The notes beneath the pieces were generated by a model. That model had not been told where the DNA came from, searched no databases, and worked only from the letters and a program-made list of their open reading frames with translations. 64,000 bases of DNA, taken from contig RDOB01000001.1 in NCBI GenBank assembly GCA_011364965.1, positions 64,001-128,000 on the forward strand. The letters are read 5' to 3'. Below are positions 1,364 through 9,876 of this stretch, piece after piece. Origin of the DNA: Candidatus Heimdallarchaeota archaeon (GTDB lineage Archaea > Asgardarchaeota > Heimdallarchaeia > Hodarchaeales > Hodarchaeaceae). Within the stretch, counting starts at the first letter, position 1, and each line of letters starts with the position of its first letter. The position numbers were made by a program, and so were the translations under genes.

Positions 1364-1687
1364 TCAGTCTCTTTTCCCACTAGGTAATTTTTTCCGACCA
1401 AACTGGGATTTTCTGCCCCCTTTTTTCTTATCATATTGAGGATCTGAAAATAGAGTTGTTTCTTCATTTAAATGAGAGATTTTGTCTTTTCTAGCTGAAA
1501 TAACAAGCCAAGGGTTTTTCGTTGAACCTATAACCTCAATAATCTCACCAATCTTGATATATTTACCTTTTTCTTGTATCAGAGCTGATGAACCTATTTT
1601 AGGAAGGTTTTCACCTATCAACTGCACAACTATCTTCCCTTGGGTAATGATTGGGGATCTTCCAATAATAGGATGTGAATTTGACAT
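1364..1687 (-). CDS. gar1: H/ACA RNP subunit Gar1/Naf1
   Basis: LPKIGS...KIGEIIEVIGSTKNPW matches the Gar1 core; basic G/R/K tail. Confidence 0.75.
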   Translation of the reverse strand: MSNSHPIIGRSPIITQGKIVVQLIGENLPKIGSSALIQEKGKYIKIGEIIEVIGSTKNPWLVISARKDKISHLNEETTLFSDPQYDKKKGGRKSQFGRKKLPSGKRD

Positions 1688-1775
1688 AAACTAGGAATTT
1701 TTTTTTACATATAAAAATAATGTGATTTATACGAGAACTTTTGAAACCTGAAGAAATTATTTAAGTTGTGATAAA

Positions 1776-2996
1776 ATGTTGACATATGATGTCATTATTA
1801 TTGGTGGGGGCCCTGCAGGTTTATCAGCTGCAAACACTACATCTAAATCAGGACTTAATACTATAGTTTTAGAAGAACACGGAAAAATTGGGGAACCTTT
1901 GGCATGCGGAGAAGGTATATCAATTGATAAGATTTCTACCTTAGAAAATATGCCAAATCCTGAGTTTCAACTAGATGATAATGCATTACAGCTTCAGCAA
2001 CACCATAGTTTCGTAGAAAGGATAGTTAGAGCTCAAAGATTCTTTTTTGGTAACACTGGTGTTGCCACTTCAAGCTTAAATACCGTAACCATAAACCGAC
2101 CCCTATTTGATCAACTTATGGCCAAAAATGCAGAGAAAAATGGAGCTCTAATCAAATTAAATACCGCTGTAAAAGGAATCCACCGTAATCAAGGCAAATT
2201 AGAATTAATAACCACACAAGGTAATTTCCAATCAAAAATTGTTATTGGTTGCGATGGTCCTGCTTCGCACTCTGTTAGGATGATGGGACTATCTCCTCCC
2301 TCTAAATATGTACAAGCTGTGGAATACAAAATCGATGGTGTTTTCACTGATGCACTCGATTTTTATTTTAATTTCAATATTCTAAAAATGCATTATGGTT
2401 GGGTATTCCCTAAGAAAGTACACACGAATGTGGGGGTCGTTGTTGATCCGGCCTCTAGTCCAATGAAAATATTAAATTTATTTACTGATTATTTAGAAAA
2501 TAAAGATATCAAAAATGCAAAAATCGTAAGAAAAATAGCTGGCATTATCCCTGCTGGAGGCCCAATCCCAAAATACTATACCGATAATTTTATGGCTGCG
2601 GGAGATGCTGCGGGGATGACAAACTCGATTTTTTATGGTGGAATAGCAATAAGCATCCATTCTGCTGCTTTAGCAGCCCAAATTGCTAAAGATGCATATG
2701 AGACAAACGATTTTAGCGCCAATTTCCTAAAGCAATATGCAGAATTATGTCAGCAGTTTCCTTACACCAATCCGATTATACAGCAAGCTCATGAAATATT
2801 ATATGATTATTTTACTGCAGAAGATCTTGATACTCTTGGAAAATGGTTCAATGGCTGGGATATTACTGAGTTTAGTAAAATGCAAAAAATAAAAATATTT
2901 CTTAAAGCTATGACGAAACCTAAATTATTGAGGAAATTTAATAATGCCAAGACACTTGCACATGGTTTTAGCACGAGTAGGGATTGGGGATTCTGA
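1776..2996 (+). CDS. Geranylgeranyl reductase family FAD-dependent oxidoreductase
   Basis: GGGPAG FAD motif, CGEG, YGWVFPK, GDAAG. Confidence 0.9.
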   Translation: MLTYDVIIIGGGPAGLSAANTTSKSGLNTIVLEEHGKIGEPLACGEGISIDKISTLENMPNPEFQLDDNALQLQQHHSFVERIVRAQRFFFGNTGVATSSLNTVTINRPLFDQLMAKNAEKNGALIKLNTAVKGIHRNQGKLELITTQGNFQSKIVIGCDGPASHSVRMMGLSPPSKYVQAVEYKIDGVFTDALDFYFNFNILKMHYGWVFPKKVHTNVGVVVDPASSPMKILNLFTDYLENKDIKNAKIVRKIAGIIPAGGPIPKYYTDNFMAAGDAAGMTNSIFYGGIAISIHSAALAAQIAKDAYETNDFSANFLKQYAELCQQFPYTNPIIQQAHEILYDYFTAEDLDTLGKWFNGWDITEFSKMQKIKIFLKAMTKPKLLRKFNNAKTLAHGFSTSRDWGF

Positions 2997-4471: not shown

Positions 4472-5221
4472 TTATCCTAAAGGAGTTAATTCAATATGAC
4501 CAGGAGTTGGTTGGAAAGCAAAATCTGTATTTTCAACCTCTGAGAGGGTCATCCCTGGTACTTTAAGTATTTGTAATGCCGATGATGGTTCTTTATCATG
4601 CTCTTTCAAAGTACTGAGTCGAAGAACGCCATCACAATAATGTTCAACTGCTTTTACAATTTGGGGTTCGTGTACATCTCTGTGTATCGTGAGTAAACTA
4701 ACAATACCCATTTCTTTATCAGTTGCTATTTTATGTTGAAGAAAGGCCATTGGTGCTTTTAAAGTATCTGATACTAGAAGAATAGTCGTTAATGAGTCTA
4801 GTACACCTCGTACTGATTGGGAACGGACATGTAGAAGTGATCTACGTATCTGGTCTGTAACTAAACGAGGTTGAGTTATATCGCGTATAATATTTTCTCC
4901 TGTGGCAACAGGTCGGCCTTCGGAATAACCAAAGGGATTTGAAAACGCATCAAGAAAAACTAGTCTTTTCGTTTCAAAAGTAACTTCTGAAATGCTGTAG
5001 GGGACAAATAATGGAGAATAATGAGAGAAGAGATGCTCTGTAGATAAGATATACCCATATTCTCCAGTTCTCAACCCTTCTGATAAAAATTGCACAAGAA
5101 TGTGTTCAGTATTTATCCCGACTTCATCTTCAACAAGAATTATACTCCCTCGTGGAACTCCACCACCTAATGCATCATCTAAGAGAGGAATTCCGAATCT
5201 AGCTCGATCATCCATGGACAT
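4472..5221 (-). CDS. KaiC/RAD55-like RecA-fold protein with degenerate Walker A
   Basis: GIPLLDDALGGGVPRGS N-terminus, VLDSLT Walker B; P-loop reads EDEVGINTE. Confidence 0.85.
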   Translation of the reverse strand: MSMDDRARFGIPLLDDALGGGVPRGSIILVEDEVGINTEHILVQFLSEGLRTGEYGYILSTEHLFSHYSPLFVPYSISEVTFETKRLVFLDAFSNPFGYSEGRPVATGENIIRDITQPRLVTDQIRRSLLHVRSQSVRGVLDSLTTILLVSDTLKAPMAFLQHKIATDKEMGIVSLLTIHRDVHEPQIVKAVEHYCDGVLRLSTLKEHDKEPSSALQILKVPGMTLSEVENTDFAFQPTPGHIELTPLG

Positions 5222-5548: not shown

Positions 5549-6343
5549 ATGAAAATTGAATTCTTTGGGATCAAAACTCCGCTCATTGACAATCCTGATA
5601 GCAAGTTCATTCATATTTTTCAAGATAATTTATTCAAAGCAAATTTGAACCTTCTAGATGGCGATATTGTTATCGTTGCCTCCAAATTAATCTCTATTTT
5701 AGAGAAATGCCAAATTTCCCTTGATGATATAAAAAATATCCGCGATGAAGCAAAAAAGACTGCTGTTACAAGCAATCTTGATCCAAAATTTGTTGAAATC
5801 GTCTATCGTGAAGCTGATGAGGTATTAGGAGCAGTTCCAGGTGCTGTTCTCACATTAAAAAATGGAACTTTACATGCTAATTCTGGAGTTGATAGTAGTA
5901 ATTCTGGGGGGAAAAATTATTTGATAACATTACCGAAGGATCCATTTGGAACTGCAGAGCGAATAAGAAGGGAGATTTTTATAAAAACAAAAAAGAAAGT
6001 CGGAGTGATTATTGCGGATTCCAAAACTCAACCTTTAAGGCGAGGAACGTCGGGATTTGCTCTGGGTGTAGCGGGGTTCATTCCAGTTATTGATGATCGA
6101 GGAAAATTAGACCTTTATGGTCGTAAAATGGTTGTTACTACCCGAGCAATTGCTGATAATCTTGTATGTGCAGCAGAAATCTTAATGGGTGAAACGGATC
6201 AAAAAATTCCTATTGTAATTGCTAGAGGGTGCTTAGATATAATTTTCGAAAACTTTTCAGATCCTACCGCAGTGGATAGGCTAATGAAAATGGATCCTGA
6301 ACATTGTATTTATATTGGTCCACTATGGGTTAATAAGCGTTAA
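5549..6343 (+). CDS. cofE: CofE-family gamma-glutamyl ligase (F420-0:glutamate ligase or FolC2)
   Basis: ASKLIS, ANSGVDSSN, GVIIADS, PLRRG, GKLDLYGR, ILMGE motifs. Confidence 0.85.
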   Translation: MKIEFFGIKTPLIDNPDSKFIHIFQDNLFKANLNLLDGDIVIVASKLISILEKCQISLDDIKNIRDEAKKTAVTSNLDPKFVEIVYREADEVLGAVPGAVLTLKNGTLHANSGVDSSNSGGKNYLITLPKDPFGTAERIRREIFIKTKKKVGVIIADSKTQPLRRGTSGFALGVAGFIPVIDDRGKLDLYGRKMVVTTRAIADNLVCAAEILMGETDQKIPIVIARGCLDIIFENFSDPTAVDRLMKMDPEHCIYIGPLWVNKR

Positions 6344-6365
6344 AAATTACAGGAAAAACGAATAA

Positions 6366-7226
6366 ATGGTTATCACATCTGAGTTGGCAGGAATAAAGAT
6401 TGGAGATACATATCCCACTAGGATTATGGCTATCATTAATCTCTCGCCGACCTCTTACTATAAAAACAGCATTAAATCTTCAAAAGATGAAATAATAGAA
6501 CAAATTGAAATGATAGAACATGCGAAAGTAGATTTCATTGATGTAGGAGCAATTTCAAGTGCTCCCAGTTTTCTATATGGAAATCAGGAAAAATTAACTA
6601 TCAAAGAGGAGATTTCGCGCTTAACAGTATTTTTTGCAGCTAATGATGAAGTTAATTCAGATATTCCTGTGTCAATAGACACAGGTTCAGCAAAAACAGC
6701 TGAATATGCGCTTTCAAAAGGTGCCAGTGTCATTAATGACATAACAGGGTTTAAATCAGATCCTAATCTTGCTAAAGTTATTTCAAACTGGAATGCTGGG
6801 GCTGTTATTATGGCATGTAGAAATACCCCTGGTGATGTATACACTATTGAAACTATATGTCATGAACTCGGGAGAAGCATAAAATTGGGAAGAGAAGCTG
6901 GAATCAAGGAATCAAAGATGATTATAGACCCAGGGCTAGGAGGTTGGACAAATGAGAGAAAATCAATTCATGATTATACGATAATTGCCAAATTACCTGA
7001 TATACGTCATTTGAAAAAACCAATTCTTGTTGGAATTTCTAGAAAATCATTTATTGGTAAGATATTAGAAAAAGCACCTGAAGAAAGGTTATGGGGCTCA
7101 TTGGCAGCAACAACAGCAGCAATATTAAATGGAGCTCATGTCATACGTACCCATGACCCTATGGAAACTAAAGATTGTGCTATTATATCTAAATATATTG
7201 CAAAATTAGGTAGGAATCTAGATTAA
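6366..7226 (+). CDS. folP: Dihydropteroate synthase
   Basis: IMAIINLSP, IDVG, SIDT, INDITG, DPG, GISRKSF, IRTHD. Confidence 0.93.
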   Translation: MVITSELAGIKIGDTYPTRIMAIINLSPTSYYKNSIKSSKDEIIEQIEMIEHAKVDFIDVGAISSAPSFLYGNQEKLTIKEEISRLTVFFAANDEVNSDIPVSIDTGSAKTAEYALSKGASVINDITGFKSDPNLAKVISNWNAGAVIMACRNTPGDVYTIETICHELGRSIKLGREAGIKESKMIIDPGLGGWTNERKSIHDYTIIAKLPDIRHLKKPILVGISRKSFIGKILEKAPEERLWGSLAATTAAILNGAHVIRTHDPMETKDCAIISKYIAKLGRNLD

Positions 7227-7574
7227 AATCCTATAAGGTTCAATTTAAACAACTATTAGAACAGGAGATTTTTGATTAGCTGAAAGGGTTCCTAACTTCA
7301 AATAATTACATTATTAAGTAAAAACTCAAATTCATTCAAATAACTCGGATAAATTCTCTATACACGACCAAGGGTAAGATGTAAGTAGAAGTTTATTAAC
7401 GAAACTTCTTAAACCTTGGATTCTTATTGGTTATATAGAAGAGTAATATAATTGTAAGAACCCTGTAATCTAAATTATGGAATCTTAAAGGTAAAAATAA
7501 ATAGAGAGATCAGTACCAATTCATCTCTCACTCTTTAGTTGAACTAAATAATTCGTGTATTGAAGGTTATTTTA

Positions 7575-8177
7575 ATGGCAAATTTAGATGATTTCTTTAG
7601 TGACGATCAGTCCCGAAATGTTGATTCATTGATAGAGGTTACAAAAAAATTCTTTATTTTTGTTTCTCAACTCGCTGAAATTGTAGATGATCTAGAAAGG
7701 AAATATTCACTTTTGAATGGGAGAATCGATGATCTTCTTCAAAAATCGATGTCACCCCCCAGACAACCGCAAATTAACCCTCCAACAGTAAGTACCCCCG
7801 CTCAACCAGTAACAACTCCAACAGCGCCTCCAGCTCCGTCTTCTTTTCCAACTCCGCCTGGATTACCAACACCACCTAGTACAGTTCAACCTGCACCTAT
7901 TCAAGCTACTACACCTCCACCTGCCCCTTCTAACCTTCCTCCATTACCTGGACAGAGTCCCCCATCTAGTCCTTCAATTTTTGGGCAACCTCCACCCCCG
8001 CCAACATTCGGTCAGCAGAACCTACCCTCATCGGGAGGATTAGCTCCTAGTCCAACTGCTGGCCTTGGTCCAAACGCTCCAGCACCTACAGCATCTCCTA
8101 TGAGTTTAAAAGCTCAAATGAACATGGAACTCAAGGAAGCATTTGCTAGAATTCGGAAAGGATGGGATGAGGATTAG
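7575..8177 (+). CDS. Coiled-coil + polyproline protein with C-terminal amphipathic helix and acidic Trp tail (WASP/WAVE-like architecture)
   Basis: N-terminal heptad region, ~115-aa Pro-rich core (PPPPP, LPPLP), ends MELKEAFARIRKGWDED; start ATG 7575 (track gives TTG 7560). Confidence 0.8.
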   Translation: MANLDDFFSDDQSRNVDSLIEVTKKFFIFVSQLAEIVDDLERKYSLLNGRIDDLLQKSMSPPRQPQINPPTVSTPAQPVTTPTAPPAPSSFPTPPGLPTPPSTVQPAPIQATTPPPAPSNLPPLPGQSPPSSPSIFGQPPPPPTFGQQNLPSSGGLAPSPTAGLGPNAPAPTASPMSLKAQMNMELKEAFARIRKGWDED

Positions 8178-8202: not shown

Positions 8203-9144
8203 TTATTTATAAAGCAGATTTCCAAGATCTCTGAGCTTTTGGATGCCCCGAACTTCAAATTCAAATAATGGAATTTCCTTTAGATTAAAGTCAGAATATA
8301 ACTCCTTGATTTTTTTTAAATTCTCCTGATGATTATTAAACCGAGTATGACAGTATGGACACCCTGAACTTTCAGGTTGCACTTGATTAACAAAAATTTG
8401 ATTTATGGGAAATTGAACTTCATATAATGCTCTAATTAAACGCTCTGTCTCCCATATAGCCATGATATTGGGAATAGTAACAGCTATAAACTCTGTTTCA
8501 GTAGGATTAGCTAAATGAACACGCGCAATTTCGACTTGTTCTTTTAACTCTTCGAGTTTGTCAAATGCTTCATCCTCGCTTGGAATGCCAGTACCTCCAA
8601 GGAAAGTTTTCAAACCACTCATCATACCTCCGAGTTTTCTTCTCATTTTTATCATACGAAAGAGCCAACCTTCAGTAATTTCAGGTAGTTGAAGAAGTTT
8701 AAGTGTATGTCCTGTTGGAGCTGTATCAAAAATAACTAATTCAAATTCAGGGTTTTGTATGAATTCCAAAATCTGAATGAAAGCTACAGTCTCATCAGCG
8801 CCTGGTGGTGATAGAGACGTAGGATCAAGTTCTCCTAAGAAGTCAGATAAAGCCCCAGTTGGATCTTGTGTTTTCACAATGTCAGAATAGTTTTTGATAG
8901 CTTCATCTGTGTTTAATTCAATAGCAGATAACTTAGAAACATTGTTAACATGAGTATAACTATCTCCACCTATCTGTTGATCGAGACTATCCGAAACTGA
9001 ATGTGCAGGATCAGTAGATACCAGAAGTGTCTGTATTCCAAGATCTGCAGCGTATATAGCAGTAGCAGTGGCCATAGTAGTTTTTCCAACCCCGCCTTTT
9101 CCACCAAAGAATAAAAAGTGTTTATCAAAAATCAAATTATTCAT
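8203..9144 (-). CDS. GET3/TRC40/ArsA-family ATPase
   Basis: GKGGVGKTT, STDPAHS, DTAPTGH; single ATPase domain, Met-rich insert and CPYC motif. Confidence 0.92.
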   Translation of the reverse strand: MNNLIFDKHFLFFGGKGGVGKTTMATATAIYAADLGIQTLLVSTDPAHSVSDSLDQQIGGDSYTHVNNVSKLSAIELNTDEAIKNYSDIVKTQDPTGALSDFLGELDPTSLSPPGADETVAFIQILEFIQNPEFELVIFDTAPTGHTLKLLQLPEITEGWLFRMIKMRRKLGGMMSGLKTFLGGTGIPSEDEAFDKLEELKEQVEIARVHLANPTETEFIAVTIPNIMAIWETERLIRALYEVQFPINQIFVNQVQPESSGCPYCHTRFNNHQENLKKIKELYSDFNLKEIPLFEFEVRGIQKLRDLGNLLYK

Positions 9145-9273
9145 ATTTTCCCGAGAAGTAATTATGAAGATGAATCTTTTGGAATCTGCGAGGTAGAAAA
9201 TTTTGATAATAAATAAGAATCTTTAACAAGATTTGCGAAGGGGGGTGAAACATACTTCATTGGTGACTTATTC

Positions 9274-9876
9274 ATGAATCACAGGGTAAATCGAGGTATT
9301 TACAAGGGTCTTATGATTACAGTAATTTTAGTTATATTTCTACCCTCTATTTTATCAGAGGAAACTGTTAATGCCAATATAACTACAACAAGCATAGATT
9401 TCCCGAAATTGTTTGTTATAAAATCTGTCGAAAAATCTGAAGTATATTTGGGAGATAGTTTCACTGTTACTATTACAATTAAGAATTATGGAAACCAAAC
9501 TGCTTATAATGTTACTTTTAGTGAACAATTAAATAATCCTTGGGTTTTTGAGGTCTCTGGTATTACTAAACTTTCTTATAATCAGATTGGAGAAAATGAA
9601 ACTAAGCAATTCAGTTATATTATTATAGCTAAATCTCTGGGGAGGTATCAATTAAATGCAGGCAAAGTTGATTATTACGATTCTGAAGTCAATCCAAATA
9701 AGTATATTGCATACAGTAACTCACCAGAAATCATAGTAAATGCAGAACCTGAGGATTTTTCGCTAGAAAATTTCAATGCAGCGATTTCACTTCTCTTAAT
9801 TCTGTTAATTGGAAATTTTCTTCTGATTGCGCGTTTAATCTCCCAAAAACTGAATAGACGCAAAAATGACGGTTAG
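9274..9876 (+). CDS. TRAP-beta (SSR2)-like Ig-fold type I membrane protein
   Basis: Signal peptide, one Ig-like domain (KLFVIKS...G..FTV...IKNYG..TAYNV...F.VSG), C-terminal TM and basic tail, 200 aa. Confidence 0.7.
   Translation: MNHRVNRGIYKGLMITVILVIFLPSILSEETVNANITTTSIDFPKLFVIKSVEKSEVYLGDSFTVTITIKNYGNQTAYNVTFSEQLNNPWVFEVSGITKLSYNQIGENETKQFSYIIIAKSLGRYQLNAGKVDYYDSEVNPNKYIAYSNSPEIIVNAEPEDFSLENFNAAISLLLILLIGNFLLIARLISQKLNRRKNDG

Follow-up and report, generated by a model that had tools for sequence, protein, structure and literature searches.

Asgard archaea possess an actin cytoskeleton that drives crawling and the growth of protrusions (PMC13716822), yet the regulators of this actin known so far are profilins and gelsolins only (PMC13716822), and a filament polymerase, a nucleator and a membrane tether have yet to be identified in them (PMC13716822). 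Some Asgard profilins bind polyproline of the VASP type weakly, at millimolar affinity, and most of those tested do not bind it (PMC8410842). In VASP itself, the EVH2 region comprises a G-actin site (residues 223–239), an F-actin site (residues 259–278) and a tetramerising coiled coil (PMC10340426). Among archaea outside the Asgard group, arcadin-2 of Pyrobaculum docks through a C-terminal peptide in the hydrophobic groove of crenactin (PMC5173319). The tails of Asgard ESCRT-III proteins, for their part, have been reported to carry MIM1- and MIM2-like motifs (PMC7240154). Our literature searches found no Asgard WH2, VASP, formin or MIM adaptor built like the protein described here, in which a long N-terminal helix, a disordered proline-rich arm and a short, highly conserved end helix follow one another within 200 residues.

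The gene lies in the window, by which we mean the whole stretch of 64,000 nucleotides analysed, taken from the genome of a Candidatus Heimdallarchaeota archaeon. It occupies 7575–8177 on the forward strand as a stop-free reading frame of 200 codons closed by TAG at 8175–8177, and the opposite strand is interrupted by stops throughout. Three stretches of protein quoted in an initial annotation of this DNA all occur in its translation. The start codon is likely to be ATG 7575, because homologues share the equivalent Met; an alternative TTG at 7560 would add five residues that are unconserved among homologues. The features of the gene are as follows.

7575–8177, forward strand: whole gene, an open reading frame with orthologues in 21/21 genus genomes and a profile match in 170/201 Asgard genomes.
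7584–7598, forward strand: acidic-aromatic motif, residues 4–8, Leu-Asp-Asp-Phe-Phe, in which Asp5, Phe7 and Phe8 are invariant in the order.
7587–7751, forward strand: long N-terminal helix, residues 5–59, from AlphaFold2 and PDB profile matches.
7752–8093, forward strand: disordered proline-rich arm, residues 60–173, from AlphaFold2 and orthologue comparison.
7845–7877, forward strand: pair of proline motifs, residues 91–101, Phe-Pro-Thr-Pro-Pro then Gly-Leu-Pro-Thr-Pro-Pro, from the 27-sequence alignment.
7935–7952, forward strand: Leu-Pro-Pro-Leu-Pro-Gly, residues 121–126, better conserved than any other short motif in the arm.
8094–8174, forward strand: end helix and acidic tail, residues 174–200, the most conserved block of the family.
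8163–8165, forward strand: codon of Trp197, invariant in the genus, not in the order or the family.

The order of parts proposed in the initial annotation, namely a presumed pairing helix, a proline-rich arm, an amphipathic end helix and an acidic tail, is right. Modelled with the family alignment, the protein showed a helix at residues 5–59 (pLDDT >90 across residues 20–55), an unstructured stretch at residues 60–177 (pLDDT about 50–60 in the arm) and a second helix at residues 178–199 (pLDDT about 88). The second half of the N-terminal helix is heptad-like and is presumed to form an oligomerising coiled coil. The pattern of residues 4–8 (hydrophobic, acidic, acidic, hydrophobic, Phe) was maintained in most of the wider family, its columns being unconserved in the most divergent members. 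Across orthologues the arm varied in both length and sequence and retained its richness in Pro. Within it, Pro98 and Pro101 were invariant and Pro95, Pro100 and Pro103 nearly invariant in the alignment of 27 sequences; Leu121, Pro122, Leu124, Pro125 and Gly126 of the Leu-Pro-Pro-Leu-Pro-Gly motif were invariant (n = 27 sequences); repeats of the type Gly-x-Pro-Pro-x-Pro-Gly were present in one to five copies in distant homologues.

No sequence relative was found in Pfam, NCBIfam or PDB for any part of the protein. Pfam hmmscan with the whole protein and with its termini returned nothing except a sub-threshold match to CCDC93_CC over residues 1–65 (E 0.096), and an NCBIfam search with the 200-residue protein gave no match. 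Profile searches of PDB recovered only GCN4-type, generic and designed coiled coils for the N-terminus, and for the end helix a plastin EF-hand helix, a designed coil and an integrin tail, all of them noise. When HMMs of the N- and C-terminal blocks were run against the six-frame reading frames of the genome, the gene itself was the sole significant match.

Relatives were recovered from other Asgard genomes. The gene was present in 21/21 other genomes of the genus and in 2/2 genomes of a second family of the order, and the alignment of 27 sequences contained invariant columns in both helices, with block 174–200 nearly invariant, Trp197 included. In the two second-family genomes the protein is shorter and lacks the Trp, but has Leu-Pro-Pro-Pro-Pro-Gly repeats and shares both the acidic-aromatic motif at the N-terminus and the end helix. 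Further full-length relatives, of 150–220 residues, came from searching 1.84 billion representative proteins with a profile, and a broader profile then matched 170/201 Asgard genomes (77/85 of those of high quality, 23/28 families), mostly once per genome, with matches spanning the whole model in reading frames of 130–240 residues; the narrower alignment used as query matched Hodarchaeota-type genomes only. The window protein itself matched the full-length family profile at E 2.5e-49 with all blocks aligned, and named members of the family include those of Hodarchaeales, Thorarchaeota and Freyarchaeota. A search of the ESM Atlas returned unnamed Asgard clusters only. Judged from these matches, the conservation of the 200-residue protein exceeds chance by far. 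The gene belongs, as profile searches delimit it, to an unnamed, undescribed and near-universal Asgard family and, with matches in 170/201 genomes across the phylum, is therefore not a curiosity of Hodarchaeales.

The end helix recurred in several contexts. Glu185-Leu186 was invariant family-wide, and at E up to 0.01 a profile of the end helix alone matched little else in a genome than a single site, where the Asgard family's protein ends. Its marginal additional matches, and the longer reading frames matched by the broad profile, included two small GTPases. One, of 475 residues (L097, G076:C36, 299–1723), is RagA/Arf-like (Pfam E 7e-22) and carries in its tail a coil, a Lys/Pro-rich arm and the end helix, that is, the whole module; the other (L098, G133:C3, 984–2000) is of the Ras family (E 3e-37), the end helix following directly after the G domain. 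These GTPase-tail modules we take to be true relatives of the module in the window protein. A further form of 270 residues (L099, G181:C91, 353–1162) comprised an N-terminal membrane anchor, a coil, an arm of Ala-Pro repeats and the end helix. Two proteins of 290–310 residues from a sister family within the class (L095, G166:C33, 996–1925; L096, G178:C19, 985–1845) bore the end helix in two to three tandem copies: the usual N-terminus and arm were followed by two short helix-Gly-Leu-Lys/Thr-Lys motifs (in L095 at residues about 164–178 and 201–213, some 35 residues before the basic helix at 236–257), then by a basic end-helix copy with an acidic run and a final end-helix copy. In some Hodarchaeales homologues the arm itself contains an additional copy of the end helix. 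No protein of >350 residues with an end helix of the Hodarchaeales type was found, and a Hodarchaeales-type N-terminal profile run against 101 genomes gave no fused forms, gelsolin fusions included. That small GTPases and a membrane-anchored protein also carry the end helix therefore points to a portable docking motif, displayed on the flexible arms of coils, membranes and GTPases and sometimes in tandem. Many eukaryotic and bacterial actin assembly factors have tandem short helices that follow proline-rich tracts.

The end helix also closes a PAC2-family protein (L023, G018:C162, 752–1447, forward strand; Pfam E 1.4e-21) encoded in a different genome of the genus. A fragment of 48 codons of the family's N-terminus lay 1.3 kb away on the reverse strand (2763–2909), and a RagA-like GTPase gene stood between the two (1485–2642, forward strand). 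We read this arrangement as an inversion that split a second copy, or else as an assembly error; a functional fusion seems the less likely account.

The end helix of one clade resembled a known F-actin-binding peptide. The query was block 259–278 of human VASP, its sequence as printed in PMC10340426. Searched against 121 Asgard genomes, it matched in 14, all of them among the 34 of Thorarchaeota type, and gave no other match in those genomes; in 9/14 the match was the family's own reading frame, and the other five were the ends of family-sized reading frames. E-values per genome were weak (0.012 to 0.5). In Thorarchaeota orthologues the end helix is shorter and is preceded by a run of Gly; their local alignment scores against the VASP block were 52–56, or 38–40 without the Gly run, exceeding those of all 12,855 background reading frames of the window's genome (maximum 37) and being reached by at most 1/2000 composition-preserving shuffles. 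A fourth Thorarchaeota orthologue scored lower, at 35, and a Lokiarchaeia-like form was intermediate (score 24, p 0.02). The end helix of the window protein, at a score of 21, stood at chance level (shuffle p about 0.08–0.18; 737–1317 background reading frames did as well). The Thorarchaeota end helix is thus significantly like the F-actin-binding peptide of VASP, whereas the window's helix, the positional orthologue of the Thorarchaeota one, has diverged. The likeness comes from one clade, and may reflect the convergence of short basic amphipathic helices.

We suggest, as a possibility rather than a probability, that the family is a multivalent actin adaptor of the Ena/VASP kind in which the order of the parts has been permuted. 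The N-terminal coiled coil would pair or oligomerise the protein; the proline arm, with motifs of the formin-FH1 and VASP types, would recruit profilin or another proline-binding protein; and the amphipathic, basic end helix and the acidic tail behind it would dock on a conserved cytoplasmic partner, most likely the cell's actin, as filament or as monomer. The whole would then correspond to the proline-rich region and EVH2 half of an Ena/VASP protein, the oligomerising coil having shifted to the N-terminus, and would tether actin or feed it at filaments without activating Arp2/3. The genome encodes one actin-family gene, at 1465–2616 of L030, and a profilin-like protein, at 1501–1869 of L029 (a weak profilin match), so the parts that an actin adaptor needs are present in it. 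It is a good deal more doubtful that the family is the long-missing Asgard actin polymerase or tether, its end helix homologous to the F-actin-binding block of Ena/VASP.

The initial annotation had likened the protein to a minimal nucleation-promoting factor of the WAVE/WASP type; on that reading the C helix and Trp-acidic tail would activate an Arp2/3-like complex, and the order typical of the WASP family (coil, polyproline, amphipathic basic helix, acidic end with a Trp) is indeed shared. The Trp, however, whose lack of conservation the annotation itself had named as refuting, was specific to the genus: Trp197 was invariant only there (27 sequences), and outside the genus its position held Leu, Ile, Met or Ala or was absent, the acidic tail being mostly retained. 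Nor was the N-terminus, likened to those of WAVE, BRK1 and CCDC53, of that type, for Pfam and PDB profiles gave generic coiled coils only and found no WAVE homology. Neither the whole protein nor residues 165–200 matched WH2 by hmmscan at E up to 10, and a whole-genome scan with PF02205 matched neither the window gene nor its tandem-helix relatives. PF00022 recovered a single actin-family gene from the genome (87% complete), and therefore no Arp2 or Arp3 partner was found. With the Trp unconserved, no WH2, a generic coil and no Arp found, the protein was not filed as a nucleation-promoting factor; that reading is largely refuted and deserves next to no credence, whereas the looser claim, that of an adaptor with possible contacts to profilin and actin, still stands. 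An ESCRT adaptor, in which the end helix would be a MIM1-like and Leu-Pro-Pro-Leu-Pro a MIM2-like ligand of the Vps4 MIT domain, so that the protein recruits or regulates Vps4, was also considered. The genome encodes a Vps4 with a MIT domain, the helix is C-terminal after a Pro-rich linker as in MIM1, and Leu-Pro-Pro-Leu-Pro fits the published MIM2 pattern. By eye, residues 185–196 parallel the C-terminal helix of the genome's Snf7-family protein encoded beside Vps4, and the window helix aligned with that Snf7 tail at a score of 29 (shuffle p 0.001); but 192 background reading frames of the genome matched the Snf7 tail equally well, other family members scored 12–18 (p 0.2–0.8), and the Freyarchaeota form, at 24 (p 0.019), was equalled by 1020 background reading frames. 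Further, the end-helix HMM found neither Snf7 tail among the 12,855 reading frames of the genome; the Snf7 core, which the genome's two Snf7 proteins match at 49 and 57 bits, is absent from the window protein (no Pfam match); the variable number of Pro repeats and the tandem helix copies are not MIM-like; and no ESCRT gene was found among the neighbours of 10 homologues. Co-folding of Vps4 MIT (residues 1–82) with residues 160–200 gave ipSAE values of 0.26 and 0.25 (mark 0.32) in runs without controls, which is evidence neither way. Binding to Vps4 thus gained no support and is improbable. A compact ESCRT-III locus (L026, G000:C16, 136–2628) consists of two Snf7-family genes followed by Vps4 with its MIT domain, and across the six genomes of the genus from which the second Snf7 tail was recovered, its sequence varied little or not at all.

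A stronger competitor to the actin adaptor is a tether in small-GTPase signalling or membrane trafficking, that is, a soluble scaffold that makes no direct contact with actin and whose end helix docks a GTPase, a longin- or roadblock-type regulator or another trafficking factor. The occurrence of the end helix on RagA/Arf-like (L097) and Ras-family (L098) GTPases and on the membrane-anchored form (L099) favours it, as does a broken second copy of the family lying among three small-GTPase genes in one genome of the genus. The same attachments fit a trafficking partner and actin equally well: eukaryotic GTPases commonly act directly upstream of actin assembly factors, and for that reason the fusions are compatible with an actin partner and do not exclude one. 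No GTPase gene is conserved beside the free-standing gene, and a purely trafficking role would leave unexplained why the Thorarchaeota helix is like the actin-binding block of VASP; we regard such a role as unlikely. Gene order might instead suggest a factor in membrane-protein biogenesis that partners the Get3-type ATPase and the TRAP-beta-like protein encoded next to it. All 21 other genomes of the genus have the gene at the equivalent position, preceded by a CofE-like gene and a dihydropteroate synthase gene and convergent with a Get3/ArsA-type ATPase gene. The CofE-like and dihydropteroate synthase genes (5549–7226 in the window) are an almost fixed upstream pair throughout Hodarchaeales, and the Get3/ArsA-type ATPase and TRAP-beta-like genes (8203–9876; Pfam E 7e-12 for the latter) stay nearby despite several local inversions, the gene remaining beside or near a Get3/ArsA-type gene in the window and in L061, L062 and L066; the shared block contains TRAP-beta, a KaiC-like ATPase, CofE and dihydropteroate synthase. 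Such a block, however, is ordinary conserved synteny within one order. Distant lineages have unrelated neighbours at this gene, Get3 is missing from the vicinity of one Hodarchaeales locus, and the window protein shows no resemblance to Get1, Get2, Get4 or Get5 in Pfam or NCBIfam, so that a role with Get3 is very improbable. The neighbourhoods of 10 homologues contained no actin, profilin, gelsolin or ESCRT gene, and gene neighbourhoods are uninformative as to the partner. The window also encodes, at 4472–5221 on the reverse strand, a KaiC/RecA-like ATPase that matches PAXNEB (Elp4-like) weakly and recurs in the same block of other Hodarchaeales.

A protein found in roughly 85% of sampled Asgard genomes is a concrete candidate for the missing actin regulator, and one that is cheap to test, being soluble and 200 residues long, with peptides of 27 residues enough for binding tests. 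If the more doubtful reading is true, in which the family is the missing polymerase or tether and its end helix homologous to the VASP block, the core of a eukaryotic actin elongation factor (an oligomerising coil, a profilin-recruiting proline arm and an actin-binding helix) would be older than eukaryotes, with its links to small GTPases and membranes already in place. If the partner differs from actin, the protein would still be an unnamed, near-universal Asgard adaptor worth naming.

Compared with known systems, the protein shares with WASP and WAVE the order of its parts, and a Trp in the acidic end only in the genus of the window; WH2, a conserved Trp, the WAVE homology domain and Arp2/3, which belong to those systems, were not found here. 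With the MIM tails of ESCRT-III it has in common an amphipathic helix at the C-terminus, reached through a Pro-rich linker, and, in the genus, the parallel to the Snf7 tail, but the Snf7 core is missing and the likeness is not family-wide. The tails of Asgard RagA/Arf-like and Ras-like GTPases, of which no description was found in the papers searched, carry the same end helix, in L097 also in the order coil, arm, helix; the window protein, unlike these, has no G domain and represents the free-standing, near-universal form. Arcadin-2 is the sole archaeal precedent found for the proposed docking of a C-terminal peptide on actin; it comes from another archaeal lineage and from a crenactin gene cluster, it depolymerises crenactin filaments, and a PDB profile search found no sequence similarity between it and the end helix.

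Ena/VASP proteins differ from the Asgard family in several respects. There is no profile-level homology between them; the window protein has 200 residues and other Asgard members about 130 to 240; EVH1 is absent here (no Pfam domain was matched, and the N-terminus is a single long helix); a G-actin/WH2 block is missing from the window protein, whose helix resembles that of VASP no more than chance would give; and the coil, C-terminal in Ena/VASP, is N-terminal in the Asgard family. What they appear to share is a coiled coil, a Pro arm with motifs of the Gly-Pro-Pro type and a short basic amphipathic helix, and in the tandem-helix relatives L095 and L096 the motifs of the Leu-Lys-Lys-Val type that lie about 35 residues before the basic helix resemble, by eye, the spacing from GAB to FAB in VASP.
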